Assembly: GCA_038203095.1 (NCBI GenBank)
Contig: JBBREH010000001.1
Span: forward strand, 431 to 64,430
Direction of reading: 5' to 3'
Source of the DNA: Candidatus Doudnabacteria bacterium
GTDB lineage: Bacteria > Patescibacteriota > Doudnabacteria > UBA920
DNA: 64,000 nt
The first letter of the stretch is position 1. Every line of letters starts with the position of its first letter. Below, in pieces: positions 1,943 to 61,546 of the stretch. The notes beneath the pieces were generated by a model that saw only the letters and a program-made list of their open reading frames with translations, was not told the DNA's origin and did not search any database. A program made the translations under genes and the position numbers.

Positions 1943-2080
1943 AAGGATATTATATCACGATGGGCATTTTGATGTATAATTGGATTGACAAGATTGACAT
2001 GATTTAAAAGAATGGCAAGAATTTACTGCAGTCTAATTATGACAATCTTTTAATTCATTTAATTCTTGTTCAATCTTTTT

Positions 2081-3007
2081 ATGCCTGAACTGCCAGAAGT
2101 TCAAACTATAGTTAGCGAGCTTAATAGGAAATTAAAAAACCGAACTATAAAGTCGGTTGATGTTTTCGCGCCCAAAATGGTTGGGGTGGGTTCGGCGACG
2201 CTCTCTCCTAAAAGAACAGCCTCCGCCCAAACAGTAGAAAAATTTAAAATGCTGATAACTGGCAAAAGGTTTTTATCAGTACGCCGTCGCGCCAAGCTTT
2301 TAATTTTTAAGTTGTCGGGAGAGCTTTTTATGCTTGTTCATCTTAAAATGACCGGACAATTTATTTTTGAAGATAAAGTTTTGCGGGGCAAAACTTTAGG
2401 GAAATATCGGCTTTTGAATAAACTTAATGCGCCGTTAGTTCAGCTACCTTGCAAGCATACGCATGTGATTTTTAATTTTGTCGATCAGACAAAATTATAT
2501 TTTAACGATGTCCGCAAGTTCGGTTATTTAAAGTTGGTGCGCGTTGATGAAATATCCTCTGTTCGTGAACTAAACGAATACGGTCCTGAGCCGTTGGGTA
2601 AATATTTTACCGCCGGACACTTTTTGACGGCCGTCAAAAAGTGTCCGGACAGAAAAATCAAACAAATAATTATGGATAATAAAATTGTGGTGGGGATAGG
2701 CAATATTTACAGCGACGAAATTTTATTTCATGCCGGGGTCCGGCCGACGCGCTTGGTTAAATTACTGTCCGATGTTGAAATTAGCAGTATTTATAAATGG
2801 ATAAAGCCGGTATTAATAAAAGGCATAAAAGCCAAAGGTTCCAGCGTTGGCGACTTTGTCCGTACCGACGGCACCTGGGGCCAAATGGGCAAATTTCACT
2901 TTGTCTACGGACGTAGGGGGCAGAAATGCAAAAAATGTGGTACGACCATCGAATCAGTTAAGCTGGGCGGTCACACAGCTAGTTATTGCCCAAGATGTCA
3001 AGTGTAG
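2081..3007 (+). CDS. fpg: Formamidopyrimidine-DNA glycosylase (Fpg/Nei family)
   Basis: Starts MPELPEV (catalytic Pro2 after Met removal), so the true start is the ATG at 2081 rather than the ORF-track start. C-terminal zinc finger CPRCQ. Confidence 0.8.
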   Translation: MPELPEVQTIVSELNRKLKNRTIKSVDVFAPKMVGVGSATLSPKRTASAQTVEKFKMLITGKRFLSVRRRAKLLIFKLSGELFMLVHLKMTGQFIFEDKVLRGKTLGKYRLLNKLNAPLVQLPCKHTHVIFNFVDQTKLYFNDVRKFGYLKLVRVDEISSVRELNEYGPEPLGKYFTAGHFLTAVKKCPDRKIKQIIMDNKIVVGIGNIYSDEILFHAGVRPTRLVKLLSDVEISSIYKWIKPVLIKGIKAKGSSVGDFVRTDGTWGQMGKFHFVYGRRGQKCKKCGTTIESVKLGGHTASYCPRCQV

Positions 3008-3008
3008 A

Positions 3009-3061
3009 GTGCCCATTTATAGGCTATCTGAGACGCCGATGAATCGGCACGCTACACATAT
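3009..3061. repeat. 53-nt repeat element, copy 1 (intergenic, directly after the fpg stop)
   Basis: About 83 percent identical to 22366..22418. Contains a GCCGAT..ATCGGC hairpin and the shared core ATCGGCACGCTACAC. Confidence 0.7.
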
Positions 3062-6323: not shown

Positions 6324-6446
6324 AATTTTCAATTTTTAATTTCTAATTTTCAATGAATTTGAAATTTTGGAATTTATTAATTAAAACATTATAAATTGTT
6401 TAAAAATTGTAAATTGTAAATTAAAAATTAATTCTTTTTGAAATTT

Positions 6447-9342: not shown

Positions 9343-9376
9343 CCCTCCCCTTGAGGGGGAGGGCTAGGGAGGGGTG
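9343..9376. repeat. G/C-rich palindromic element (intergenic copy)
   Basis: CCCTCCCC-TTGA-GGGGGAGGGCTAGGGAGGGGTG, reverse-complement match to 21724..21765. Confidence 0.65.
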
Positions 9377-16390: not shown

Positions 16391-16482
16391 TACTTATCAA
16401 GAGACTCCGATGTATCGGGGCGGCAACCTATCCTAAATAACCTTGGGCAAGGTGCCAATTCGCCAAAGGCGGATGATAAGAA
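16391..16482 (+). promoter_or_regulatory. SAM-I-clan (S-box-like) riboswitch in the metK leader
   Basis: P1 strand CTTATCAAGAG pairs with GATGATAAG. Conserved GGCAACC and GGTGCCAATTC elements. AGGAG RBS and the metK ATG follow directly. Confidence 0.6.
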
Positions 16483-16496
16483 AAGGAGATTTTTTA

Positions 16497-17684
16497 ATGC
16501 CAAAAAATATCGGTCAACAAAAAAAAGTTTATACCTTTACTTCGGAATCGGTCACCGAAGGACATCCGGACAAAGTTTGCGACCAAATTAGCGACGCCAT
16601 TTACGATGAAATGCTTCGCCAGGATAAAAAGGCTCACGCGGGCATTGAATGTTTTGCAACTACGGGTTTGGTTATTGTTGGCGGAGAAGCGCGGACTAAG
16701 GCGTATGTTGATATTCAATCTATAGTCCGTCGGACACTTAAAAGAATTGGTTATGACAAGCCCGAGTATGGTTTTTGCTCAACAGATGTAGGCGTAATTA
16801 GTACTTTACACGAGCAGTCGCCGGACATTGCCCAGGGAGTAGACGAAGGCAAGGGCGAGTTTAAAGAACAAGGCGCGGGAGACCAGGGGCTTATGTTTGG
16901 CTTTGCCTGCGACGAAACCAAAGAGTTAATGCCGTTGCCAATATCGTTGGCACATCGCTTGGCGCGCAAATTGGCCGAAGTGCGCAAAAACGGCAAGTTG
17001 CCGTATTTAAGACCCGATGGCAAAACTCAGGTAAGTATGCAGTATGTAGACGGCAAACCTAAAGCCGTAATGAACGTTGTGGTAGCTGCGCATCATAGCG
17101 AAGACGTTACAACGGAAAAATTAAGAAGTGAGATTAAAAAATTTGTCATTGAGCCGGTTTTGGGCAAGTGGTTAAAAAAGGACACACAAATTTTTATTAA
17201 TTCCACCGGCCGGTTTGTGCTGGGCGGTCCGCCGGCAGACGCGGGACTTACCGGACGCAAAATTATTGTAGACACTTACGGCGGTTACGCGCCCCATGGC
17301 GGGGGAGCTTTTAGCGGCAAGTGTGTAACTAAAGTTGACCGTTCAGCCGCTTACGCCGCCCGCTACATTGCCAAAAATATTGTCGCTTCCGGTCTATCTA
17401 AAAAATGCTTGGTTCAACTGGCGTACGCCATTGGTGTGGCCAAGCCGGTGTCGGTTATGGTGGATACTTCCGGCACGGGAAAAATTTCCGATGTCCGTTT
17501 AGGTGAAATTGTCGAGCAAATTTTCCCCATCAAGCCCGCGGACATTATTCGCCAACTTAACCTGGAACGCCCGATTTACGAACAAACCGCGGCCTATGGC
17601 CATTTTGGGAGAACCGATATTAAAGTGCCTTGGGAGAAGACGGATAAGATTAGGCAGTTAAGAGTCCTGGCTAAAAAGAAATAA
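16497..17684 (+). CDS. metK: S-adenosylmethionine synthetase
   Basis: [14 protein letters not shown] and GGGAFSGK motifs. ATG at 16497; the track start at 16443 lies inside the riboswitch. Confidence 0.9.
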
Positions 17685-17957
17685 TTCGCCGCGACTTCCC
17701 TCCTAAGTCCGCTTAAGGCGGGCGAAAGAGGGGAGAATACAAACAAGGTGAAGGAGCTTAAGAATATGACTAAGGGGAAAAAGTAATAATAAGCCTACAA
17801 TGGGCATCATTGCATATGTAATGATGCCCATTGTATCTGGTCCAATTAATTTTGAATTATTCAGGAATTAAGTCTATAATGACTATAAATCTTCTTGAAA
17901 AAAGCCATTAAGTGAGCAGTGTTTTAAAAGGTAGTGTAATTAATTATATTATTTATT

Positions 17958-19211
17958 ATGGGAATATCGGAACATAAGCATCAGCCAACAAGCCCTGCGG
18001 AATCAGGAGAAATTTCGGAAGTAGAAGTAATTGCTAGGAGAATTTATGAGAGTTTAAATATCGCGTTATCAAAAATCCCTCTGGATCCGGCTAATCCTTT
18101 TGAAGTTCGTGAATTTCCTAATTATTTAGCATCTAGGGCAGCGAGTTACGAAAGTGTTGGAGATATAGCCAAAGCTTTAAGTTTGTATGAGCAACTTTTA
18201 GAATTTTATGAGACTGGGCCATTGCTTATTGATAGAGATGTACAGTCATTTGATACATTAAAAGCACAGGCAGCCATTAAAGGAGTTGTTAGAATGGGCG
18301 GTAATCCGAGTGGTGCTTTAAAGAGGCTTGGCAAAATTTGTCATAGAACTGTTTCGCCCGATGCTCTGTCTCAAGCATCAGCCGTAGTTTGGAAAAGCAA
18401 TTTTTCGAGTGGAGGGAATTCTAAGATTACTAATCAAGAAGTTTGCGATCTTTTATTAGCATTGCCGGAAAATCCAACATTAGCTCAACTAGAGAAAATA
18501 AAAACTTTGTCTACAGAAGATGAAAAAAGAATTGCAGAACTTAACAAAAAATATGAAGGCCATCTACAAAACGCAAGGGCGTTATATGTCGCACCTTCTG
18601 AGACAGCAAAAGCGCAATTTACAGATGCTGATCATCTAGAATTTGAAAATTTAAGGGAAAAGGCATCAGCGCAAGCTATGTTAAGGAGCTTTGGCTCGAC
18701 AATGCTCAAATTGGCAGGAGAGGGTATAAGAAATTATTCACAAGTAGCTATTTTAGCTCATAAGATGGGAATGGTTGAGGAATCCGAACAATTTTTAAAA
18801 CAAGCAAAAGTAGTAGCACAAATGGGACAAATGGATATAAAGTTAGTTATAAAAGGAAGTTTGGAACTTCCCGCAATTGAAAGTTATAGCAGAGATTCAG
18901 CTATGGAAATAGCAGGTGTTTTAAAAGCGACTGATAACTTTCAAGAGGGTATTGAGTTTATATTTAAATATGCAGAAATTAACCGCGACACGCTTTATTA
19001 TTTAGGAGAAACCCTTCCGCAACTTTTGAAAATTAAACCTAAGGACCCCGAGGTCTTAGGGCTAGTACAAAATTTTTTAGATTGTCATAAAAATCTTCCT
19101 ATGATTTCAAATAAGATTTCATTGTTAGATTATGACCCTTATGTTGTAGAGCCGAAAGCAAAAATAGCTTTATTGTTGAAGCAACAGTTTGGATTTAAGG
19201 GTATTGCTTAA
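17958..19211 (+). CDS. Hypothetical protein
   Basis: 417-aa ORF; no recognisable family. Confidence 0.45.
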   Translation: MGISEHKHQPTSPAESGEISEVEVIARRIYESLNIALSKIPLDPANPFEVREFPNYLASRAASYESVGDIAKALSLYEQLLEFYETGPLLIDRDVQSFDTLKAQAAIKGVVRMGGNPSGALKRLGKICHRTVSPDALSQASAVVWKSNFSSGGNSKITNQEVCDLLLALPENPTLAQLEKIKTLSTEDEKRIAELNKKYEGHLQNARALYVAPSETAKAQFTDADHLEFENLREKASAQAMLRSFGSTMLKLAGEGIRNYSQVAILAHKMGMVEESEQFLKQAKVVAQMGQMDIKLVIKGSLELPAIESYSRDSAMEIAGVLKATDNFQEGIEFIFKYAEINRDTLYYLGETLPQLLKIKPKDPEVLGLVQNFLDCHKNLPMISNKISLLDYDPYVVEPKAKIALLLKQQFGFKGIA

Positions 19212-19223
19212 TTAGTATATTTT

Positions 19224-19357
19224 ATGGACAGAAATTTAGTTTTAGAATTTGTGAGGGTAAATCCCCTTGAAGGCAGCCATCGAGGGATCGATTAAAGTGC
19301 CTTGGGAATGGACGGATAAAATTAGACAACTTAGGAACCTTGCCAAGCAAAAACGCT
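19224..19357 (+). pseudogene. Decayed gene fragments: glpX 5' end (about 38 nt) followed by metK 3' end (about 75 nt)
   Basis: 19224..19261 is about 87 percent identical to glpX 23906..23943 (MDRNLVLEFVRV). 19283..19357 is about 75 percent identical to metK 17613..17687 ([17 protein letters not shown]). Confidence 0.65.
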
Positions 19358-19397
19358 AGGAGTATAATTACAAACGTCAGATAATTAAAATGAATTT

Positions 19398-20279
19398 ATG
19401 GCCTATATTATTATTTTAACAATCGTCATTTTATTGTTTTTATCTTCCATCCGGATTGTTCAGCAAAACACTGTGTATGTGATAGAAATGATGGGCCGTT
19501 TTAACCGTATTATGACTGCGGGCTTGAATTTTAAAATGCCGCTGTTTGAGCGTGTAGCCGAAAAAGTTACCTTGCGCCAGCAAAATTTCACCTTAAAGAA
19601 TATCTATCCTTCTAAAGATAAAGTGATTGTAGATATTGCCACCAACCTAATTTATTCGGTGGAAACCAGTTCCGAAGGCGTAAAAAAATATACCTATTCA
19701 TTACAAAGCCGCGCGCAGTCAATTGGCGCTATTATTGAAAACTCGCTTAGAACATATGTGGCTAAAGAAACTCATGAAGGCATTTTGGAAAAAAAGGAAG
19801 AATTGGCAGCGCATATTCGAATGGATTTGGAAAAACAGTTTTTTGAATGGGGTATGGTAATTAGCTCGTTCCAAATTACCGAAGTCAGCTTTCCGGCCAC
19901 TATTACCCAGGCCATGAGCGAAGTTGTGGCCAGCCAGCAGTTAATGAAGGCCGCGGCCAACCAGGGCGAAGCCACCAAAATTCGAGCGGTCAAAGAGGCG
20001 GAAGCGGAAAAAGAACGCAAGCGTCTGCAGGGTGAAGGTATTGCCTTAGAGCGCGAGGCTATTGCTACGGGCTTGCGCCAATCGGTTGAAATTATTAAAC
20101 AAGCTACCGGCCAAAGCAATGTAGAAATTATGGCGATTTTAACTTTAAATCAGTATTTGGACACAATGAAGAGCATTGGCGTTACGCCCAACACTAAAGT
20201 TTTGTTTCTTGATTCCAGTGCCGGCAAGACTGGTGAACTTATGAAGCAGTTTATGGCCGCGTTTGAAAGCGGGAAGTAG
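19398..20279 (+). CDS. SPFH/band-7 (stomatin/prohibitin-like) protein
   Basis: N-terminal TM helix followed by an SPFH domain and a coiled-coil (EAEAEKERKRLQGE). Confidence 0.75.
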   Translation: MAYIIILTIVILLFLSSIRIVQQNTVYVIEMMGRFNRIMTAGLNFKMPLFERVAEKVTLRQQNFTLKNIYPSKDKVIVDIATNLIYSVETSSEGVKKYTYSLQSRAQSIGAIIENSLRTYVAKETHEGILEKKEELAAHIRMDLEKQFFEWGMVISSFQITEVSFPATITQAMSEVVASQQLMKAAANQGEATKIRAVKEAEAEKERKRLQGEGIALEREAIATGLRQSVEIIKQATGQSNVEIMAILTLNQYLDTMKSIGVTPNTKVLFLDSSAGKTGELMKQFMAAFESGK

Positions 20280-20374
20280 CTGGAAAAATAATAATAACAA
20301 TAAAAATAACTATTACTACAAGCATCTTTGCTAAAGCAAAGATGCTTGTTTGTTGTTGTGCTACAATATAACAG

Positions 20375-22084
20375 ATGCAAAAAATGGTGATTAAGGTTGT
20401 AAAGATTATTATTGCCACAGCAATTTTTGCCTGGTTTGGTCTATTTTTGGCGCATAAAATAGATTTAACCACCGCGGATTTAGGCCGGCATATTGTTAAT
20501 GGATCGATAATTTTACACGGATCTTGGGCAGAGAAGTGGGCCGTGCTTAATACCAATTTTTATTCTTATACCTTACCTAATCAGCCATTTGTTAACCATC
20601 ACTGGGGGAGTGGAGTGGTTTTTTATTTAATTTTTTTGGCATTTGGATTTGCGGGGTTGTCTGTATTTTATGTAGGTTTGGGATTGGCGACGTTGTGGTT
20701 ATTTTTTGACGTAGCCAGAAGAGCGAGCAATTTTTGGATATCGTCTGCTGTGACAATTTCTCTAATCCCGTTGCTTTCGGCTCGCGCCGAAGTTCGTCCG
20801 GAAATGTTTACCTATTTTTTTACGGGAGTATTTTTTTGGGTGCTGTGGAAATCGCGGAATGACGCGGAACTTAACGCTGAAAGACGCGGAAGCTATAAGT
20901 TGCTCTGGATTTTGCCTATAATTGTTCTGCTTTGGGTTAATTTGCATATTGGTTTTGTGTTTGGGTTTTTGGTGCTGGGGGCGTTTGGATTGGAAGAAAT
21001 AATAAGGAATTTTCCATTCCGAATGCATCTGAGGAATCTGTTAAATCCAGGAACAGACAGATCCCTCCGTTCGCCCTCGGATGCACTCGGTCTTGGTTGG
21101 GATGGCAAATTACAAAAACTGATTATCATATCGGCGCTTTGCATTCTCGCAGGCTTAATAAATCCTTTTGGCTATAAACTGTTAATTTACCCCGCGCAAA
21201 TTTTTAAGAATTACGGTTATTTGATTGTAGAAAATCAATCCATCCGTTTTTTGGAGCGTCTAAATTTTGTTCAAGGCCAACACTTTTTACTTTTTAAACT
21301 GGCCGTGGCCGGGGTCATTATCAGTTTTATCGGAGTTGCCATAAGGTGGTGGAGAAAGATTGATATCACGATGTTGGTATTAGTCATAATCACAGCCTTT
21401 ATGGCTTATTTGGGAATTCGTAATTTTCCGTCTTTCGCGTTTTTCGCCTTGCCGGCCGCGGCCGGAAATTTGTATTTAATTAAACCGCAAAATCTTCATC
21501 GCGCGTACAAGTATTCGCTGTCAGTTATTCTTATTTTTATTGTAATTATTTGCGCCCAATCCCAGTACCAAACTTTTATGGAAATCAGGCCTGTTTTAGG
21601 TTTTGGTGTTTTGCCCGGTGTTAACCAGTCGGCTGATTTTTACAAGGCTAATAATCTTAAAGGTCCTATATTTAACAATTATGACGTTGGCGGATATTTA
21701 ATTTATCATTTATATCAAAAAAATCACCCCCTCCTAGCCTCCCCCATCAAGGGGGAGGAAGGGGGCACGGACACAAAGCTCTTTGTGGACAACAGGCCGG
21801 AAGCTTATACAACTGATTTTTTTGAAAATTCCTACAAACTGCCGCAAACGGACAGCCAAAAATGGCAGGAACTTGATAACCGGTATAATTTTAACTCCAT
21901 CTTTTTTTCCCACCGCGACTATACCCCGTGGGGTCAGGCGTTTTTAATTTCGCGAATACAGGATCCCACTTGGGCGCCGGTGTTTGTAGACACGTACAAT
22001 ATAATCTTTGTAAAAAGAAACCCACAGAACGCGGATTTAATTAAAAAATATGAACTACCAAAAAGTATGTTTGGCATTAAATAA
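20375..22084 (+). CDS. Polytopic membrane protein, candidate GT-C-type glycosyltransferase
   Basis: At least 12 predicted TM helices, immediately upstream of a Dpm1-like GT2. Contains two in-frame repeat-element insertions (21024..21091, 21724..21765). Confidence 0.45.
   Translation: MQKMVIKVVKIIIATAIFAWFGLFLAHKIDLTTADLGRHIVNGSIILHGSWAEKWAVLNTNFYSYTLPNQPFVNHHWGSGVVFYLIFLAFGFAGLSVFYVGLGLATLWLFFDVARRASNFWISSAVTISLIPLLSARAEVRPEMFTYFFTGVFFWVLWKSRNDAELNAERRGSYKLLWILPIIVLLWVNLHIGFVFGFLVLGAFGLEEIIRNFPFRMHLRNLLNPGTDRSLRSPSDALGLGWDGKLQKLIIISALCILAGLINPFGYKLLIYPAQIFKNYGYLIVENQSIRFLERLNFVQGQHFLLFKLAVAGVIISFIGVAIRWWRKIDITMLVLVIITAFMAYLGIRNFPSFAFFALPAAAGNLYLIKPQNLHRAYKYSLSVILIFIVIICAQSQYQTFMEIRPVLGFGVLPGVNQSADFYKANNLKGPIFNNYDVGGYLIYHLYQKNHPLLASPIKGEEGGTDTKLFVDNRPEAYTTDFFENSYKLPQTDSQKWQELDNRYNFNSIFFSHRDYTPWGQAFLISRIQDPTWAPVFVDTYNIIFVKRNPQNADLIKKYELPKSMFGIK
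21724..21765. repeat. G/C-rich palindromic element (in-frame inside the membrane-protein CDS, opposite orientation)
   Basis: CACCCCCTCCTAGCCTCCCCCATCAAGGGGGAGGAAGGGGG; encodes HPLLASPIKGEEGG. Confidence 0.65.
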
Positions 22085-22200
22085 TTGACAAGATTGAGCA
22101 AGATTTTCATGCCAGAGGCAGATCCACCTTCGGCGGAAAATGATTGACAACATTGGAATGCAATTGTCTTTATAATCTTTTAAATCATGTTAATCAACTT

Positions 22201-22932
22201 ATGAAGCTGTCAATAATCATCCCAGCGCACAATGAAGAAAAAACCATTGCTCAGGTTTTGGAGCAGGTTTTAAAAGTGGATTTGGACGGGTGGGAGAAAG
22301 AGGTGGTTGTGGTGGATGACGGAAGTAGTGACGGGACAGGTACTATCCTGGAAAAGATTTGTAGCGTGCCCATTTATGGGCATTCCGGATCGCCGATAAA
22401 TCGGCACGCTACACTTATTAGCCACCCCACCAATCTCGGCAAAGGCGCGGCAATAAAATCGGCTTTGGTCAAAGCCACCGGGGATTACGTAATTATTCAG
22501 GACGCGGATTTGGAGTATAATCCGGGCGATATCGTTAATCTTTTATCGTTTATCCCTGACGATGGAAAACATCGGATTGCCATTTTTGGCAAGCGCGGTT
22601 ATAAAGCTTATCCGGAGCGCGGCTTCCACTATGTTATTGGCGCGTGGTTGCTTACTACTTTTTATAACTTGCTTTATGGCCAGCAACTTACGGATCTTTA
22701 CACTGGCTACAAATTAATCCCGACACGCATTTTTAAAGAACTAAACATTGAGTCCAACGGTTTTGAATTTGAAGCCGAAGTGGCTTGTAAGCTGGTGAAA
22801 AAAAATGTTATTATAAAGGAAGTAGAAATTAGTTATTTACCCAGAAACAAAGCTCAAGGTAAACATATTCGCTTTGTTGACGCCGTGAAAGGTTTTTGGA
22901 CTATTGTTAAAATTAGGCTATTTAAGAATTGA
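22201..22932 (+). CDS. GT2 glycosyltransferase (polyprenyl-phosphate sugar synthase/Dpm1-like)
   Basis: LSIIIPAHNEE...VVVVDDGSSDGT...DADLEYNP motifs. ATG at 22201. Carries a 53-nt repeat insertion at 22366..22418. Confidence 0.75.
   Translation: MKLSIIIPAHNEEKTIAQVLEQVLKVDLDGWEKEVVVVDDGSSDGTGTILEKICSVPIYGHSGSPINRHATLISHPTNLGKGAAIKSALVKATGDYVIIQDADLEYNPGDIVNLLSFIPDDGKHRIAIFGKRGYKAYPERGFHYVIGAWLLTTFYNLLYGQQLTDLYTGYKLIPTRIFKELNIESNGFEFEAEVACKLVKKNVIIKEVEISYLPRNKAQGKHIRFVDAVKGFWTIVKIRLFKN
22366..22418. repeat. 53-nt repeat element, copy 2 (in-frame inside the GT2 CDS)
   Basis: Matches 3009..3061; encodes VPIYGHSGSPINRHATL inserted before the GKG motif of the GT2. Confidence 0.7.
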
Positions 22933-23891
22933 TGCCAAACAGTGAGAGAATTTTAGTTGGAGGTGGCCCCAGCACATTGTTCGATGTTAGGGTTAAGGGC
23001 CGGGAAACAGAAACTTATCCTCCAGTTTTATTGACACAGGCAGAACAAGATTTTGCCGGGCAACTTTTTTTAGAATTGGAGAGCAAAGTAACTAGTTTTA
23101 GCGATTTTAAAGATTTCCCCAAAATTTTGATTGAGCAATTTCTTAAAGAATATACTGAGAAAGAGGAAGTGATTACAAAAATTTTTTTGCGGGAATTGGG
23201 CCTGATTGATTTTAAGTCGCTACTGTACCCCGGCACCAAGGAGAGTTTGCTTAAGGCCACTGAAATTTATGGCCCAAAATTAAAGAGTGTGCATTTATGG
23301 TCGCAGGGGGATGTAGATGCAACCGGCCATCAGACAAATAAAATTTTTAGAACCGGTTTAGGCGCGATTTTAAAGAGTTCCCGGGCGGCAAGTTTAAAGG
23401 ACAAACTTTTTTGGAATATCCGGACAGATAAATTTGCAAACATAGAAGGCATGCTTGATTCTGTTGCGGAGGGCCAGAAAGAGAAAGTGGTAGTAATTGA
23501 AGACAGTGTTGAGAATATTAAAAAAGTAACCAATATGTTGAAAGATAGGGCAACTGTTTTTCCGATTTGGGCTAATTACAGCCGCCGCGGCGCTAGTTTG
23601 CGAAAGAATAATCTTGAAGAATTTGAGCGACTAAAGAAGGAATATAACGGAATTGATTCTTTGGCGGAAATTTCTAGCAGAGAGAAAGAATTTGGGGAAG
23701 TATTCAAAGATGCCCATTTATTTTTGGATTTTGACGGGGTTTTAGCCAATAATGAAGAGCTTAGGCGGGTTAACGGTGAAGCTTTGCTCAAGGCATTTAT
23801 TATTGGACTTGGGGCGGGTAACCAAGAAAGGCAAAAATTAGTTGAAGAAATTCGGACAAAATTAAACTTGATCTCGCCTGAAAAAAATTAA
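22929..23891 (+). CDS. Hypothetical protein with HAD-like motifs in permuted order
   Basis: Motif-IV-like VVVIEDSVENI precedes motif-I-like FLDFDGVL near the C-terminus. Confidence 0.35.
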   Translation: MMPNSERILVGGGPSTLFDVRVKGRETETYPPVLLTQAEQDFAGQLFLELESKVTSFSDFKDFPKILIEQFLKEYTEKEEVITKIFLRELGLIDFKSLLYPGTKESLLKATEIYGPKLKSVHLWSQGDVDATGHQTNKIFRTGLGAILKSSRAASLKDKLFWNIRTDKFANIEGMLDSVAEGQKEKVVVIEDSVENIKKVTNMLKDRATVFPIWANYSRRGASLRKNNLEEFERLKKEYNGIDSLAEISSREKEFGEVFKDAHLFLDFDGVLANNEELRRVNGEALLKAFIIGLGAGNQERQKLVEEIRTKLNLISPEKN

Positions 23892-23905
23892 TAGTAAATA
23901 AATTT

Positions 23906-24898
23906 ATGGATAGAAATTTAGCTTTGGAATTTGTGCGGGTAACTGAGGCGGCGGCTATTGCAGCTAGTAAGTGGATAGGCAAGGGTGACGGTAAAAAGGC
24001 TGATGGCGCGGCAGTAGATGAAATGCGGTCGCGTTTTAATCAGATAGATTTTAAAGGCGTGGTGGTAATTGGTGAGGGGCAGAAAGACGAGGCGCCGGAA
24101 CTTTACACCGGGGAGAAGGTGGGACTTGGATGGAAAAACTCCAACCACCCCGGCCTTTCAGGCCACCCCTCCTTGAAAAGGAGGGGAGACTCCGTGTTTG
24201 ACCTTGCTGTTGACCCGCTTGAATGTACCGACAGCGTGGCTTATGGGCGTTATAATGCGATTGCGGTTATTGCGGCCGGAGCGCGGGGCTCGCTTTTAAG
24301 TGCGCCCGATACTTATATGGAAAAGTTGGCGGCCGGGCCAAAGGCTGCTAAAGTAATTAAAATGGGTGCGCCGGTTAAGCTAAACATTGAACGTACGGCC
24401 AAGGCTCTTGGTAAAAAAGTTGGGGATGTTACGGTGTGCATAATGGATAGAGAGCGCCATAAAGATTTAATTGGTCAGGTAAGAAAAATAGGCGCCAGAG
24501 TGCGGCTAATTACAGACGGCGACGTAGCGGGCGGGATAGCAACGTGTATGCCAGAATCGGGGATAGACCTGCTTATGGGCATTGGCGCTTCCGCAGAGGC
24601 AGTTTTGGCCGCCACAGCCATTAAAATTCTGGGTGGGCAAATATTCGCTCGCTTTAACCCAATGAAAGAAGCTCATCATCAATTGTTAAAAAAAGCCGGC
24701 CTTAACGACAAAAAAATTTACTCTGTAAACGACCTGGCCAAAGGTCAAACCCTAACCTTTACCGCCACAGGCATTATTGACGGCCCACTGCTTCAAGGGG
24801 TGAGGGTTGAGGGTAGCTACATTATAACCCATTCGATAGTAATCCGCGGTCAGAGCGGAACAATAAGATATATAACAACGCATCATAAGGAGAAATAG
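23906..24898 (+). CDS. glpX: Fructose-1,6-bisphosphatase class II (GlpX)
   Basis: Collinear with GlpX (LALEFVRVTEAAAIAA...GEGQKDEAPELYTGEKVG...DLAVDP). Carries an extra ~17 aa encoded by a palindromic element at 24149..24190. Confidence 0.85.
   Translation: MDRNLALEFVRVTEAAAIAASKWIGKGDGKKADGAAVDEMRSRFNQIDFKGVVVIGEGQKDEAPELYTGEKVGLGWKNSNHPGLSGHPSLKRRGDSVFDLAVDPLECTDSVAYGRYNAIAVIAAGARGSLLSAPDTYMEKLAAGPKAAKVIKMGAPVKLNIERTAKALGKKVGDVTVCIMDRERHKDLIGQVRKIGARVRLITDGDVAGGIATCMPESGIDLLMGIGASAEAVLAATAIKILGGQIFARFNPMKEAHHQLLKKAGLNDKKIYSVNDLAKGQTLTFTATGIIDGPLLQGVRVEGSYIITHSIVIRGQSGTIRYITTHHKEK
24149..24190. repeat. G/C-rich double hairpin inserted in-frame in glpX
   Basis: GGCC-TTTCA-GGCC followed by CCCCTCCTT-GAAA-AGGAGGGG; encodes PGLSGHPSLKRRGD, which is absent from E. 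coli GlpX at that point. Confidence 0.6.
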
Positions 24899-25345
24899 AA
24901 TTTTTAATTTTCAATTTGTAATTTTTAAACAATGTACAAATTTTATAATTATGAAGTATGATTTAGAGGAAAGAACGAGAAAATTTTCAAAAGAATTGAT
25001 TAGGTTTTTGAAAACGATTAAATCAAATTTAATAAACCAATCAATTATTTCTCAATTGGTTAGGTCTGCAACCAGTGTCGGAGCGAATTACTGTGAAGCG
25101 AATGCGGCTAGCTCTAAGAAAGATTTTACGAATAAAATATTTATTTGCAGGAAAGAAATTCAAGAAACAAAATATTGGTTTGAATTATTGGCAGAATCTA
25201 ATCCCGAAAGCAAAGATGAATTAAGAAAATTTTGGAAAGAAGCTCATGAATTGACGTTAATATTTAATAAAATATCAACATCTTTAAGATCAAAATTAGA
25301 AAATTGAAGAATTGTTTATAAATTAAAAATTGAAAATTAAAAATT
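24899..25345. mobile_element. IR-flanked cassette carrying a four-helix-bundle (IVS-type) protein gene, exactly between the glpX stop and the fba start
   Basis: 35-nt AT-rich inverted repeats at 24899..24933 and 25311..25345 (33/35 complementary). Confidence 0.55.
24951..25307 (+). CDS. Four-helix-bundle protein (23S rRNA intervening-sequence protein family)
   Basis: RSATSVGANYCEA...KDF..KI.ICRKEIQETKYWFELL motifs. Confidence 0.65.
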   Translation: MKYDLEERTRKFSKELIRFLKTIKSNLINQSIISQLVRSATSVGANYCEANAASSKKDFTNKIFICRKEIQETKYWFELLAESNPESKDELRKFWKEAHELTLIFNKISTSLRSKLEN

Positions 25346-26389: not shown

Positions 26390-26473
26390 AATAATTGCAG
26401 ATTTGAGATTGCAGATTTTAGAATTACTGCAGTCCGAATCCTAAATCTAAAATCCTAAATCTAAAATTTTATT

Positions 26474-27668: not shown

Positions 27669-28505
27669 ATGACAACAAAAATCTTTCTCGACTCAGGCGA
27701 CCCCGTTGAAACCAAACAAGCTTTAAAGTTGCTTGGGTTTTTGGACGGGCAAACTACTAATCCGTCGTTAATTGCTAAAAATCCGGCCACCAGCGGAAAA
27801 AAATTTACTGAAGATGAACTGCTAAAATTTTACCGTGGTATAGTTACAGAAGTCTCGTCGCTCATTCCAAAAGGCAGTGTTTCAATAGAAGTTTATGCGG
27901 ACAAAAATATGTTGGCAAATGAAATGCTGGCGCAGGGTAGGGAGTTTAATACTTGGATTCCGAACGCCCATATTAAATATCCGACTACGACCGAAGGTTT
28001 AAAGGCAGCTGAAATAAGCGTGAAAGAGGGAATGAGGGTAAATATGACGCTAGTTTTTAGTCAGGAGCAGGCTGCTGCAGTTTATGCCGCAACAAAAGGA
28101 GCATTGCGCGGACAAGTTTATTTGTCGCCATTCGTGGGTAGGCTGGATGACCGTGGGGAGAATGGCATGGATTTTGTTTCTAACGTCGTAAAAATGTATG
28201 AACAAGGCGACGGACATGTGGAAATTTTGTCAGCTTCAATTAGGTCAAGCGAACATATGAGAAAGGCGATTGAACAGGGTAGTGATATTATTACGGCACC
28301 GCTAAAAGTTTTAAAAGAGTGGGTAGAGGCGGGATCTTCCTCCTCCCCTCGCCAGGGGAGGATGCCCATAGGACAGGAGAGTTTGCTGCCAATTCTTTAT
28401 CAGGATATCAGCTTAAACAAGCCCTGGCAGGAATATAATTTACAGCATAATTTAACTAATGCCGGTTTGGAAAAATTTACAAGTGACTGGAATTCCTTAT
28501 TATAA
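27669..28505 (+). CDS. tal: Transaldolase (Fsa/TalC-type)
   Basis: IFLDSGDP...TTNPSL motifs. ATG at 27669. C-terminal region carries an extra segment that includes the palindromic element at 28342..28361. Confidence 0.8.
   Translation: MTTKIFLDSGDPVETKQALKLLGFLDGQTTNPSLIAKNPATSGKKFTEDELLKFYRGIVTEVSSLIPKGSVSIEVYADKNMLANEMLAQGREFNTWIPNAHIKYPTTTEGLKAAEISVKEGMRVNMTLVFSQEQAAAVYAATKGALRGQVYLSPFVGRLDDRGENGMDFVSNVVKMYEQGDGHVEILSASIRSSEHMRKAIEQGSDIITAPLKVLKEWVEAGSSSSPRQGRMPIGQESLLPILYQDISLNKPWQEYNLQHNLTNAGLEKFTSDWNSLL
28342..28361. repeat. G/C-rich hairpin inserted in-frame in the transaldolase gene
   Basis: CCTCCCC-TCGCCA-GGGGAGG within a C-terminal extra segment (SSSSPRQGRMPIG). Confidence 0.55.
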
Positions 28506-28513
28506 CATAAAAT

Positions 28514-29248
28514 CCACTTGGAAGAGGGGACACCTCTTCCAAGTGGGACTAATCTATTAATAAAGCTTGAATTTGTTTTTGTTTTTCTATTAGAGGACCG
28601 CTTTCTTCTACAAATTTTTTATAATCGTTAACCGTCTTAAATTTATCCATAATAACTCGCTTATCACAAAGGCCATCGTTTCTTTTTTCAATGTAATCCG
28701 AATAACTACTAAAGGCATATTCATCCGGAGTTTTTACAATCCCGGCCACAGTTGGGTTTTGATGAATATAGGCCGAAAGCCAAGTTAAATAAGATTCATT
28801 TTCTACCGGTATGGCTTTGAATGCTCCTTGAAATAAATGGCCCACATGGTCGTATTTTTTTTGAAAGTAGACTGCGTAGCCGGTGCATAGTTTTTGGATC
28901 AGTTTGCTAATTTTAATTTCGTTGTTTTGTCTTATTAATAAATGAAAATGGTTAGGCATAAGACAATAGCAGATTAAAGAAAATGCATCTGTAGGCAATT
29001 GCTTTCTTTTGTATTTTATATCAAGAGAGCTTGGGCTAACTTCCAATTCATTTTCTGGGAATAAATTTTCTCTTAATCGATGAATAAAAATTCCATAATC
29101 TTGGGGATCAAAAAAAATATCATTTTTACCATTACCTCGATTAAAGACATGATAATAATTTCCCGCAGTAAAAGTTTTGTAATCACGATAACGCATAATC
29201 ATATTATACCATAAAATTAACTTGGAAGAGGGGACACCTCTTCCAGTT
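28514..29248. mobile_element. IS200/IS605-like or RAYT-like unit: Y1 transposase flanked by near-identical palindromic hairpins
   Basis: CCACTTGGAAGAGG-GGACA-CCTCTTCCAAGTGG at 28514..28547 and AACTTGGAAGAGG-GGACA-CCTCTTCCAGTT at 29219..29248; 40 nt from tRNA-Pro. Confidence 0.6.
28549..29202 (-). CDS. HUH-Y1 transposase (IS200-like / REP-associated tyrosine transposase-like)
   Basis: YHVFNRGN..IFFDPQDY; HUH motif in LMPNHFHLLI; downstream Tyr (YIHQNP). Probable start at M68 of the track ORF, because the upstream part overlaps tRNA-Pro. Confidence 0.65.
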   Translation of the reverse strand: MIMRYRDYKTFTAGNYYHVFNRGNGKNDIFFDPQDYGIFIHRLRENLFPENELEVSPSSLDIKYKRKQLPTDAFSLICYCLMPNHFHLLIRQNNEIKISKLIQKLCTGYAVYFQKKYDHVGHLFQGAFKAIPVENESYLTWLSAYIHQNPTVAGIVKTPDEYAFSSYSDYIEKRNDGLCDKRVIMDKFKTVNDYKKFVEESGPLIEKQKQIQALLID

Positions 29249-29288
29249 GTGCAAGTTGGTTGGAAATGGTACACTTTATCAAGTATTT

Positions 29289-29362
29289 CGGGCTGTAGTA
29301 TACCGGTAGTACGTCTGCTTTGGGAGCAGATAGACTGGGTTCGATTCCCAGCAGCCCGACCA
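29289..29362 (+). tRNA. tRNA-Pro (anticodon TGG), CCA encoded
   Basis: Acceptor CGGGCTG/CAGCCCG; anticodon stem TCTGC/GCAGA with loop TTTGGGA; T-arm CTGGG-TTCGATT-CCCAG. Confidence 0.8.
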
Positions 29363-29424
29363 TGAGCCGCTCTCAGTCTAAGGCGAATTCGGGTTGAAAG
29401 CACGACGATTCAACCAAAATCTTT

Positions 29425-42876: not shown

Positions 42877-43980
42877 CTATTTTTTTATAATTTTTTCGTA
42901 AACTTTTTTTGTTTCTTCAAACATTTTTTCCGCGGTAAAGAGCTTGGCTCTTTCGGAGGATTTTTTGGAGAGTAATTGCACTCTATTACTATCTAGTAAT
43001 AGAGTGCTAAGCGCGGCGCTTAAGGCTTTGGGGTTTTCGGGGTCTACTAAAATGCCGGCATTGCCTAAGGCTTCCGCGTTTCCGCCAACGTTAGTGGCAA
43101 TTATTGGCAAACCTGTCTGCATGGCCTCCAGAAGGGCATACGGAAAGCCTTCTTTGCGGGATGGCAAAACAAAAATGTCCAGCGCTTTTAAATACCTGGC
43201 TGCTTGGTCAACTTTTCCTAGCATGACTACGATGTGTTTCAATCTTAAATCTTTAATCTTTAATCTTAAATCTTCTGACTCCGGCCCATCGCCGAACAGT
43301 ATAACCTGAATTTTGCCTTTTATATCATCGCTCATCATCGCAATTGCTTCTATTAGTACATCCACACCTTTAGTTTTGTAAAAATTGGCAACGCATCCGA
43401 TCAGGATTTTATTGGTTGCCAAACCGAGTGTTTGCCGCGCTTCATCCCGTTCAAAAAAATCTATCGGTTCAAGGCCATTATGGATTACAGAGATTTTATC
43501 TACGCTAATTAAGTGATTATCCAGCGCGGACTGTTTGTCGGCATTGGATACACAAATAATAAAATCGCGGTAAGCAGAAGCGGTTTTTTCCAGAGCAATG
43601 TAAAAAGATTTTAGGGCGTAAGAAAGTGGCTCGTTAAAAATAAAGCCGTGCGCGGTAAACACCACCTTAGTTTTTAGCCCAATCGCAGCAAAACTGCCCA
43701 AGACCCCGGCCTTGGAAGAATTTAAGTGGACAACATCAGGTTTGTAGTTTTTAATCAGCTCACGGATTTCCCATGCGCCTAAAAAATCGTGCCAGGGGTT
43801 AATGGCGCGCTTTAAATGTTCCAGCGGAAAAGTTTCCACGCCGAATTTGGTTGCCTCACGGAAAAGCCTGTTTTCGTTGCTTCCCGCGGCAATGGCGCCG
43901 CCAAAATGCCTAGCCATTTCCAGAGTGTAATTTTGTGCCCCGCCGCCATCGGCTTGGGTAATAATGTAGAGAAGTTTCAT
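42877..43980 (-). CDS. GT4-family glycosyltransferase
   Basis: E.FPYALLEAMQTGLPIIATNVGG motif typical of GT4 (GT-B fold). Confidence 0.8.
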   Translation of the reverse strand: MKLLYIITQADGGGAQNYTLEMARHFGGAIAAGSNENRLFREATKFGVETFPLEHLKRAINPWHDFLGAWEIRELIKNYKPDVVHLNSSKAGVLGSFAAIGLKTKVVFTAHGFIFNEPLSYALKSFYIALEKTASAYRDFIICVSNADKQSALDNHLISVDKISVIHNGLEPIDFFERDEARQTLGLATNKILIGCVANFYKTKGVDVLIEAIAMMSDDIKGKIQVILFGDGPESEDLRLKIKDLRLKHIVVMLGKVDQAARYLKALDIFVLPSRKEGFPYALLEAMQTGLPIIATNVGGNAEALGNAGILVDPENPKALSAALSTLLLDSNRVQLLSKKSSERAKLFTAEKMFEETKKVYEKIIKK

Positions 43981-44105
43981 AATTTCAGATTTTAGATTGA
44001 TGATTTTAGATTGACTACATCTTATATTTTATTCTACCTTAAAATTCATTGATTTAAAAGGGTTTTTATGGTAAAGTGTTAAGGATTAAAGATTAAGGAT
44101 TAAAA

Positions 44106-50878: not shown

Positions 50879-51763
50879 TTGAAAATTTTATTTATGGAAA
50901 CTAAAAATACAATTTTAATAACCGGAGGCACAGGTTATTTGGGCAGTAATATCCTAAAAAAATTAGTGGCTCAAGGCTATCGGATAATTTTATTAAAAAG
51001 GTCTTATTCCAAGACATTTCGGATTAGCGACGTGTTGAATTCTATAGTAACTTATGATATTGATAAGTTGGCGATTGAAAAAATATTTTCAGAACACAAA
51101 ATTGATATTATTTTACACTGCGCCACGGACTATGGAAGGAAGAACATTGAGCCTTTGCAAATCATAGACGCGAATTTAACCTTGCCACTTCGTTTATTGG
51201 AGCTGGGAAAAAGAAACAAGGTTTCTTGCTTTATAAATACCGATACGATTTTGGACAAAAGAGTAAGTCATTATTCTTTATCCAAGCGTCAATTCCACGA
51301 CTGGTTTTTACTTTATCAAAAGGAGCTGTGCTGCGTAAATATTGCTCTGGAGCATTTTTTTGGGCCTGGCGACGACAATACCAAGTTCGTTTCATATATT
51401 GTTAACGAGCTAATCTGTAAAGCGAAAAAAATTGACCTGACTTTGGGCGAGCAAAAACGTGATTTTATTTATATTGACGACGTAGTCGATGGATTTTTAA
51501 AGGTTTTGGGGAAATCCCCGCAAATGGGGAAAGGCTATTTTAAGTTTGAAATCGGCAGCGGGGGCTCAATTTCCATTAAGGACTTAGTAGTTAAAATTAA
51601 GGAATTGAGTCGTAATACAACCACACAACTAAATTTTGGTGCGATTCCTTATCGGGAAAATGAAATCATGCAAAATGAAGTCGACCTTGTTGAAATCAAA
51701 AAACTCGGCTGGGCATGCAAAAATTCCCTTGAAGAAGGCCTTAAAAAAACAATAATTTCATGA
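50879..51763 (+). CDS. NAD-dependent epimerase/dehydratase family protein
   Basis: [14 protein letters not shown] Rossmann motif. Confidence 0.65.
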
Positions 51764-52779
51764 AAATTTTAATTACCGGCGGCTGCGGGTTTTTGGGTTC
51801 TAATTTAGCCCAAAAGGCTATCGCGAAAAAATACGAACTGGCAATTTTTGACAACCTTTCCCGCCTGGGCAGCGAGGATAATTTAAAATGGCTCAAGAGC
51901 CAGGGCGAGTTTAAATTTATTAACGCCGACATAAGAAAGCAAAGCGCGGTTGAAAGTGTTATTAAAGAATTTTTACCTGATGTTATATTCCACCTGGCCG
52001 GCCAGGTCGCAATGACTACTTCTTTAAGCAGTCCGAGGGATGATTTTGAAATCAACACTTTAGGCAGTTTAAATGTCCTGGAAGCGGTGAGGCAGTTTTG
52101 CCCCAATGCTTTTGTAGTTTATTCTTCAACCAATAAAGTATATGGAGACTTAGAGTGGGTTAAATACGAAGAGCAGGAAAAACGCTATATTGCCCACGAT
52201 TTTCCAAATGGCTTTAAGGAAAATGTGACTTTAAGTTTTTCTTCGCCTTATGGCTGTTCCAAAGGCAGTAGCGACCAGTATATGTTAGACTATCATAAAA
52301 TGTTCGGCCTAAAAACTGTGGTACTAAGACATTCTTCTATGTACGGCGGCCGGCAGTTCGCGACTTTTGACCAAGGCTGGGTGGGTTGGTTTTGTTCCCA
52401 GGCATTGGAGCAAAAGCAAAATAAGGACAAAGAGCCGTTTACTATTTCCGGCAACGGTAAACAGGTCCGTGACGTGCTCCATGCGGAGGATATGGTAAAT
52501 TTGTACTATAGTTTATGGGACAATTCCAATATGGTTGCCGGCCAGGTTTTTAACATTGGTGGCGGGATGGATAACAGCCTATCCTTACTGGAACTTTTCG
52601 AGCTTTTGGAAACAGAAGTTGGGATTAAGTTAAATTATCGCAAATTGCCGGCCAGAGTAAGTGATCAAAAAGTTTTTGTGGCGGATTTAAGCAAAATTAC
52701 CAATACTATTGGCTGGTTACCAAAAGTCAGCAAATTGGAAGGCATCAGAAAAATGCTGCGATGGTTGGCTGATAAATAA
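51760..52779 (+). CDS. NAD-dependent sugar epimerase (CDP-paratose/tyvelose-2-epimerase-like)
   Basis: [14 protein letters not shown] Rossmann motif; [11 protein letters not shown] catalytic YxxxK region. Confidence 0.6.
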
Positions 52780-60780: not shown

Positions 60781-61546
60781 TAAAATTTTAATTACCGGTT
60801 CCGGCGGTTTTTTGGGTAAAAATTTATACGGAATTTTGTCTAGAAAGGCCTTGGTTAAGGGAGTTGGCCGAAGCCCAGGATCTTGTGTAGATAAAATTGC
60901 TGATTTAAGCGACCGCACTCAATGCCTTGAGGTTTTAGGAGAGGTAAAGCCTTCTGTTATAATCCATTGCGCAGCTTTTAGTAATGTCGATGCGGCAGAA
61001 GCAGGCAAGGAAGAAGCAATGAAGAGCAATGTGGCATCAGTGGATAACCTGGCAGCTTGGGCTAAGCTTAACCAGGCGCGCTTTATTTTTATTTCTAGCG
61101 ATTACGTCTACGACGGAAAAAAAGGTAACTTTAACGAGGAAGATTCTATAAATCCGTTGCAGTACTATGGCCAAACTAAAGCCATTGGCGAAGAAATTGT
61201 TAGTAGTTTGCCGAATTTTGTGATTTTAAGGCCTACGGTAATTTATGGCTGGGACGAGGGCGGAAAGAATTTTTTTATGCAGCTTTACCGAAACATGCGC
61301 GGGCATAAGCCTATGGTGGTGCCGACGGACCAAATTAGCAACCCCACCTCAGTCGTGGACCTGAGTCTTTTAATTAGCCTGGCTGTTGACCGGCCGGCTG
61401 TTTCTGGCATTTTTGTTTCCACCGGCCCTGAGCCTATGTCGCGCTATGATTTTGCCTGCCGCACTTGTGAGTATTTTAGCTGGGACAAAAGCCTGTTAGT
61501 TCCCAAAACTACTGCAGAAATTGGCAGACTTGCCCCCGCCCATTAA
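60773..61546 (+). CDS. RmlD-like NAD(P)-dependent sugar-nucleotide reductase/epimerase
   Basis: ILITGSGGFLGKNL motif; SSDYVYDG motif. Confidence 0.6.
   Translation: MDSKILITGSGGFLGKNLYGILSRKALVKGVGRSPGSCVDKIADLSDRTQCLEVLGEVKPSVIIHCAAFSNVDAAEAGKEEAMKSNVASVDNLAAWAKLNQARFIFISSDYVYDGKKGNFNEEDSINPLQYYGQTKAIGEEIVSSLPNFVILRPTVIYGWDEGGKNFFMQLYRNMRGHKPMVVPTDQISNPTSVVDLSLLISLAVDRPAVSGIFVSTGPEPMSRYDFACRTCEYFSWDKSLLVPKTTAEIGRLAPAH

Follow-up and report, generated by a model that had tools for sequence, protein, structure and literature searches.

In the 64-kb stretch of DNA that was analysed (64,000 nt, hereafter the window), the spacer of 186 nt between a hypothetical gene, here designated X (17958-19211), and the gene for an SPFH protein (19398) carries two short segments, one resembling the start of glpX and the other resembling the end of metK. 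Intact copies of both genes are present on either side. We asked how the ends of two housekeeping genes came to stand back to back between unrelated genes, with the glpX head in front of the metK tail, and whether the spacer represents a working device or the trace of a past event.

A glpX head and a metK tail in one spacer

The spacer was read letter by letter, and the region 19151-19420 was compared with the whole window by BLASTN. The segment 19221-19260 matched the start of glpX (23903-23942) at 36 of 40 positions (90%, E 5.6e-8), and a gapped alignment including the short spacer upstream of the ATG reached 47/56 (E 3e-10). In the same 64-kb window, a profile of the GlpX N-terminus matched only glpX itself and 19224-19259 (E 1.9e-6). 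The orphan glpX head is designated B', its counterpart B being the first 12 codons of the resident glpX with the upstream spacer. B' was also identical at 39 of 43 positions to the glpX start of a relative, L096.

By the same BLASTN comparison, 19291-19328 matched the metK 3' end at 17619-17656 (33/38, E 2e-7). In register with the metK tail, the similarity extends over 63 nt at 75% identity (17619-17681 versus 19291-19353). A profile of the MetK C-terminus, which was built from 119 homologues and run against all six frames of the window, matched metK (E 1.5e-18), the spacer copy, designated A' (E 3.5e-9), and a further relic at 17733-17783 (E 7.9e-4), the next value being E 0.54. The metK tail in use, designated A, comprises the last 22 codons of the gene (17619-17684). 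Both fragments had been pointed out in a preliminary description of this DNA, the glpX-like one at 19224..19261 and the metK-like one at 19283..19357. Both proved to be real, with limits now refined to 19221-19260 and 19291-19359, respectively. The features of the locus are listed in Table 1.

Table 1. Features of the metK–glpX locus, in window coordinates
Feature	Position	Strand	Remarks
Resident metK (S-adenosylmethionine synthetase)	16497..17684	+	three Pfam S-AdoMet_synt domains, E 1e-38 to 1e-65
GC-rich REP-like palindromic element, 48 nt	17685..17732	+	between metK stop and A''; found by reading the sequence
A'', older metK-tail relic	17733..17792 (tail 17733-17786)	+	in frame with metK; ENTNKVKELKNMTKGKK followed by three TAA stops
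Hairpin, perfect stem, 20+20 nt, 95%	17796..17835	+	inverted repeat; begins 9 nt after A''
Promoter-like site TTGAAT-17-TATAAT ahead of ORFan X	17852..17880	+	10/12 consensus matches; consensus match alone
X, lineage-specific gene, 417 aa	17958..19211	+	weak TPR-like stretch, low G+C (0.34-0.39)
B', orphan glpX head	19221..19260	+	pre-ATG spacer, ATG at 19224, 12 codons (MDRNLVLEFVRV)
Filler at putative illegitimate joint, 24-30 nt	19261..19290	+	matches neither glpX nor metK
A', orphan metK tail	19291..19359	+	codons 19291-19356 (22 residues), stop TAG 19357-19359
Promoter-like site TTGCCA-17-TATAAT	19340..19368	+	11/12 consensus matches; consensus match alone
SPFH/Band-7, 569-aa polytopic membrane protein and GT2 glycosyltransferase	19398..22932	+	Pfam hits; same order in L095, L096, L089, L085
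Lineage-specific 320-aa gene (HAD-like)	22929..23891	+	occupies the transketolase slot of relatives
Resident glpX (class II fructose-1,6-bisphosphatase)	23906..24898	+	Pfam FBPase_glpX, E 1e-119

The filler between B' and A' was compared with glpX after codon 12 and with metK before the tail, and the scores were no better than those of shuffles (p ~0.8). The idea that it represents decayed glpX or metK was dropped, because shuffled sequence scores equally well. The filler slightly resembles the REP-like element at 9343 (p ~0.002 before correction for 14 tests), which is at most suggestive.

At the other end of A', the promoter-like site at 19340-19368 is the best sigma-70-like match within 17500-19600. 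Its −35 hexamer lies inside the A' codons for Leu-Ala-Lys, and its −10 hexamer follows closely on the A' stop, with 30 nt left to the SPFH ATG. Every relative in which SPFH stands behind metK has a promoter match of 10-12/12 at the corresponding position, and that of L099 likewise has its −35 in the metK tail codons. When A' was taken together with the downstream TAGGAG…TATAAT and the SPFH start, it matched 51/70 positions at the L099 metK–SPFH junction (E 4e-4), showing that the A'–SPFH junction is orthologous to the metK–SPFH junction of the relative. From the consensus match, we infer that the site at 19340-19368 may function as a promoter. The putative −35 box of the SPFH operon inside A' is probably the reason why A' has been retained in so compact a genome.

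Gene order in relatives and the flanks of metK

The best MetK matches among species representatives were all from Patescibacteria, by which the window was assigned to this group. Four Patescibacteria among the GTDB species representatives (MetK identity 67-84%) had no conserved neighbours and were too distant for comparison, and the loci of closer relatives (L-numbered) were reached via a protein collection and metagenome contigs. The macro-synteny from groEL and nusB to TAL is common to the window and these relatives. In L096, metK is followed by SPFH – membrane protein – GT2 – transketolase (tkt) – glpX – fba – LOG – TAL. In L095, three small ORFs stand between metK and SPFH – membrane protein – GT2…, the SPFH protein being 89% identical. 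The order behind metK is SPFH – … – tkt – glpX in L099, SPFH – … – tkt – … – glpX in L089, membrane protein – GT2 – tkt – LOG – glpX in L085, and tkt – (IVS protein) – glpX in both L082 and L087. In every close relative, transketolase occupies the interval that runs from GT2 or metK to glpX; neither a transketolase gene nor its relic was detected anywhere in the 64-kb window. Among the neighbours in the window, metK, Band-7/SPFH, GT2, glpX, class I aldolase and the 23S-IVS protein were confirmed by Pfam.

As judged from these loci, the ancestral order is metK–SPFH–membrane protein–GT2–transketolase–glpX, and the new parts are the ORFan X, the relics and a second ORFan replacing transketolase. 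The preliminary description had taken all the genes between metK and glpX for later insertions. Since the order is the same in relatives, SPFH, membrane protein and GT2 are ancestral residents and not later insertions, and the claim is retained for X and the HAD-like gene, which are lineage-specific. The check that had been proposed, i.e., whether metK adjoins glpX in relatives, was made by this synteny comparison, and the two genes were found to be adjacent in none. No extra metK tail or glpX head was detected in the loci of 12 relatives.

Both new genes are ORFans. Among 5.8 billion proteins, X matched nothing but itself, and an exhaustive HMMER search gave three distant homologues (28-34%). 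An exact-protein look-up of X returned the same contig only, and those of glpX and MetK gave no record. Searches of X against PHROGs, NCBIfam and Pfam yielded no match beyond a faint TPR and no recombinase. All three homologues come from short contigs, and their gene contexts are unrelated: a tRNA and a GIY-YIG-like ORF are the neighbours in one case, and a TPR protein precedes the homologue in another. On L090 (1-167), the X homologue is located just downstream of an apparent tRNA-gene 3' end (GGTTCGATACCCG…), and is followed by a GIY-YIG-like small ORF. The surroundings on L090 hint that the X family travels with mobile contexts. The HAD-like gene (22929-23891) also matched itself alone among the 5.8 billion proteins, and its faint resemblance to HAD-IIIA (NCBIfam HAD-SF-IIIA, E 0.002) is below the cut-off. 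The possibility that X and the HAD-like gene are paralogues was rejected (BLASTP E 3.2).

The resident metK is called as a gene for 395 aa in the identical contig L081. Its start at ATG 16497 is backed by a SAM riboswitch-like element directly upstream, at 16391-16482 on the + strand (Rfam RF00162, 33.8 bits against a gathering score of 44.4, E 5e-5). Downstream of metK, the relic A'' aligned to the metK tail of L087 (BLASTN 43/59, E 6e-4), and A'' and the hairpin behind it are collinear with metK tail plus hairpin in L089 and L087. The hairpin at 17796-17835 aligned to the one right behind the metK stop in L089. As shown by these alignments, it corresponds to the ancestral terminator-type hairpin of metK, with an orthologous A''–hairpin junction. 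A'' is an older and more decayed metK-tail relic than A'. Three MetK tails are stacked in one orientation (17619-17684; A'', 17733-17786; A', 19291-19359). The window holds two types of metK flank, one of the hairpin type, now leading to X, and the other of the direct promoter type, leading to SPFH, whereas relatives have one type each.

Origin of the arrangement

The spacer fragments had been regarded as decayed copies. Over 33 codons in all (21+12), the relics and the resident genes differ by 13 synonymous and 7 non-synonymous changes (pS 0.67, pN 0.088). For these 33 codons, binomial tests gave P = 1.3e-5 against neutral drift of both copies and P = 0.003 against decay of a fragment in place under a constrained gene. 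The mostly synonymous differences indicate that the relics were cut from working genes of a diverged lineage, and represent another functional allele rather than simple decay. Third-position identity between A and A' is 11/21, on a par with the 0.4-0.6 observed for metK between different relatives. The B' codon variants TTA and AGG are present in glpX of L096 and L089, and the Asn and the tail length of A' are shared with P0002/L082. Only about three nucleotide changes, namely those behind Ala→Val (B') and Lys→Trp (A'), are located at positions invariant among relatives. As such changes are few, the fragments appear to have decayed little since detachment. Among the best 120 MetK homologues, none ends …RNLAKQKR, and the closest shares 'NLAK' and the tail length only; no genome encountered in the searches carries metK–X–glpX or the exact A' allele. 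In a sliding comparison against the metK of six relatives, no clear breakpoint emerged, third positions being near saturation throughout.

The locus has the layout A–X–B'/A'–Y–B, the slash marking the joint and Y standing for SPFH–membrane protein–GT2–HAD-like gene, with interleaved direct repeats spaced 1672 and 4682 nt. Since the glpX head precedes the metK tail, the spacer contains a novel joint of tandem-type arrangement, opposite to that of a relic metK→glpX junction. We favour, at a probability of about 0.6, the interpretation that the spacer is no working device, but a recombination scar left by the merger of two diverged locus versions through one-sided homologous plus illegitimate recombination. 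At the outset, related Patescibacteria would have had the metK…glpX region in two diverged forms. The order would be metK–terminator hairpin–promoter–X–glpX in version 1, and metK–promoter–SPFH–membrane protein–GT2–…–glpX in version 2, which is of ancestral type. A cell with one version would then have received DNA of the other, in one direction or the other and presumably by transformation. One side would have undergone a homologous crossover, either in or past metK or in or past glpX. The opposite side would have joined illegitimately, codon 12 of one glpX becoming linked to the other metK at ~22 codons from its end, with filler of 24-30 nt in between. Such an event could be homology-facilitated illegitimate recombination (HFIR) or an equivalent additive crossover. 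The product, metK–X–[glpX head/metK tail]–SPFH…–glpX, would keep both cargoes with one intact copy of each housekeeping gene, leaving two orphan gene ends back to back. An earlier event of like type may have pushed the older metK tail A'' just past the present stop.

HFIR during natural transformation involves one homologous end and one illegitimate end, and has been summarized for Streptococcus pneumoniae, Acinetobacter baylyi and Pseudomonas stutzeri (PMC3240628). In the host phylum, competence (com) genes are conserved throughout the CPR, and at least one member is transformable, natural competence having been demonstrated for Saccharibacteria (PMC10633639). The locus resembles HFIR in the presumed foreign DNA that would lie beside a homologous anchor, in one homologous joint that would be paired with an illegitimate one, and in a kilobase-range insert. 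As expected for HFIR, there is a net addition of non-homologous DNA, the length between the repeats being either 1.67 kb, from tail A over X to B', or 4.68 kb, from A' over SPFH to the HAD-like gene. In classical HFIR, the illegitimate joint forms at a microhomology of a few nucleotides, whereas the joint at this locus (B' end 19260, A' start 19291) contains filler of 24-30 nt and no clean microhomology, which argues against HFIR. Another point against the merger is the divergence of the two versions, ~20-25% at the nucleotide level, which is high for an efficient homologous anchor. Further points against it are that version 1 and the exact A' allele turned up in none of the genomes searched, that no crossover point was located in metK, and that the codon statistics come from 33 codons only. 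The locus also differs from HFIR in that recipient sequence was kept, with none deleted and both gene ends persisting, and in that its history is read from sequence.

Displacement of gene ends is also known for Rhs, CDI and T6SS effector loci, in which the resident 3' end gives way to that of an incoming module whose 5' part is conserved, and the old end is pushed downstream (PMC5361080). Strings of orphaned 3' fragments are left behind, and HFIR has been proposed as the mechanism (PMC5361080; Jackson et al. 2009 cited there). The metK locus likewise stacks orphaned 3' ends behind an intact gene. In contrast to these arrays, however, metK encodes a housekeeping enzyme, and its tails are homologous alleles of the same 17-22 residues instead of alternative toxin domains. 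Immunity genes are absent from the metK locus, an ORFan and nothing akin to immunity pairs being present in between, and the locus also traps a 5' fragment of a second gene, glpX.

The scar is a known, ordinary kind of genome-evolution footprint in an unusual host, and not a new molecular system. As a merger of two locus versions, it would mean that additive recombination of diverged lineages has left a clear and datable trace in an uncultivated member of the Patescibacteria, a group in which competence is considered central and its genomic traces have seldom been dissected. The locus shows that lineage-specific ORFans can be slotted between essential housekeeping genes that are left intact, and that a gene-end relic can persist via an embedded putative promoter of its neighbour.

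The same end product could be reached in two steps, and this counts against the merger. A whole second metK…glpX module would have been acquired or anciently duplicated, have stayed functional for long, and then have lost the segment from glpX' codon 13 to the metK' end (codon ~373) by a recent single deletion. This deletion accounts at once for the synonymous bias and for the freshness of the relics. The history requires, however, a large insertion and then a deletion, as well as the loss of SPFH–GT2–tkt from module 1, and two modules were found in no relative. Moreover, a simple deletion leaves no filler of 24-30 nt unrelated to either gene. As a multi-step variant of the merger and not a separate cause, this history is unlikely but deserves some weight.

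We consider it improbable that the interval from the metK tail to the glpX head was duplicated in tandem in place, the two copies then losing different genes and the fragments at the junction decaying. Such a duplication yields exactly the head-after-tail joint of B' and A' together with the interleaved repeats, and foreign DNA is unnecessary. Nevertheless, the synonymous bias was significant even against one-copy neutral decay (P = 0.003), in disagreement with the neutral divergence expected of the copies. At pS 0.67, a neutral fragment would be barely recognisable, yet A' and B' keep the frame, the stop and nearly all conserved residues. The copies have diverged like orthologues of different species, and their flanks are different, separately orthologous architectures, the metK flanks differing in the presence or absence of the hairpin and each matching another relative. 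No second module or its relic was found in the 12 relatives, though the divergence equals that between them, and X is without a counterpart in the other copy.

Phage 21 and e14 integrate at the icd 3' end in E. coli, bringing a replacement tail, and the differences between element-borne and host tails in elements of this type are mostly synonymous. By analogy, X might be the remnant of a site-specific integrative element at the metK 3' end with its own replacement tail, and the stacked tails might mark repeated integrations. As in the icd case, the gene-tail direct repeats (17619-17681 and 19291-19353, 75%) flank a low-G+C ORFan, metK remains intact, and the tail differences are synonymous-biased; the three stacked tails also fit. 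Between the repeats, however, X is the sole gene, and no integrase, recombinase or phage-like gene was detected there. The segment ends in a glpX head, which is left unexplained, and the X homologues sit in unrelated contexts. We therefore regard an integrative element as a quite improbable origin of the arrangement.

Given the shortness of the fragments, the origin of the window in a metagenome assembly, and the small ORFs of 23 aa (from 19224) and 30 aa (from TTG at 19267) in the spacer, one might suppose a chance similarity, a chimeric assembly, or a spacer that works as a small ORF or a structured RNA, but each is very improbable. The similarities reach E 2e-7 to 3e-10 on DNA and 3.5e-9 to 1.9e-6 on profiles. 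Identity to the public contig L081 (SRR19962014) is 100% along 15,148 nt, with the reservation that L081 may go back to the same reads, and the joint has no shared k-mer to mislead an assembler. The RNA fold of the spacer was not significant (folding z-score −0.78), and an Rfam search of the spacer gave no family. In annotation, the short ORFs at 19224 and 19267 should be treated as pseudogene fragments. That the spacer is the relic of an ancestral metK→glpX junction with all the intervening genes inserted later, as had been suggested, agrees with the presence of metK and glpX in one conserved neighbourhood in the clade but is practically untenable, being refuted by the fragment order, with the glpX head preceding the metK tail, and by relatives, of which none has metK beside glpX and several have SPFH–membrane protein–GT2 after metK; of the 'ancestral or duplicated junction' in the preliminary description, only the duplicated nature stands.

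Beside the merger of two locus versions, which we prefer, the metK 3' end might be a recurrent landing site, at which REP-like palindromes make or capture breaks and foreign modules are added with a replacement tail. This idea is based on the three stacked tails, the GC-rich REP-like sequence at both putative illegitimate joints (17685-17732 and 19261-19290), and a RAYT-like transposase 10 kb away. The palindromes at 17685-17732 and the filler are of another, loosely defined family than the hairpins of the RAYT-like ORF. We regard the landing site as a speculative and rather doubtful possibility. If true, it would represent a REP-assisted 'tail displacement' route, by which a streamlined competent Patescibacterium bolts ORFans onto essential genes without their inactivation, relics being kept where they carry promoters.

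Repeat elements in and around the locus

The insertions of repeat elements in neighbouring genes, which had been mentioned in the preliminary description, were indeed observed. A loose family of palindromes with CCCTCC…GGAGGG cores was detected at 17685-17732 and 9343-9363 (both intergenic) and at 21725-21770, 24150-24195 and 28330-28365, its members in the last three stretches being noted at 21738, 24166 and 28342. GC-rich palindromes are located in frame inside the genes for membrane protein, glpX and transaldolase, adding ~15 residues. The palindrome site in glpX is variable, being occupied in most relatives and empty in L099, and a similar palindrome insert is carried by the transketolase of L093. 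Inside the GT2 gene, a palindrome of 76 nt (22349-22424) lies in frame; its second copy (3003-3061, 83% over 59 nt) is located just after the ORF at 2066-3007.

The ORF at 28549-29403 on the − strand resembles a REP-associated tyrosine transposase (RAYT; NF047646 REP_Tyr_transpos, E 7e-12, 45 bits against a cut-off of 80). It is flanked by two hairpins, 28498-28541 and 29202-29245, which are 93%-identical copies (CTTGGAAGAGGGGACACCTCTTCCAAG), in a REPtron-like layout.

The gene for the 23S-rRNA-IVS protein (24951-25307) is bracketed by inverted repeats of 56 nt with 84% complementarity (24899-25345). The same repeat arms were also found back to back, without the gene, upstream of groEL at 6331-6429. 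This pair of sites suggests that the IVS-flanking repeats form a hairpin element able to carry the IVS-protein gene. Among relatives, the IVS-protein genes shift their position within the cluster. Further short intergenic repeats were observed between 43979-44019 and 26391-26431, and between 60782-60826 and 51763-51807 (82-83% over 41-45 nt).
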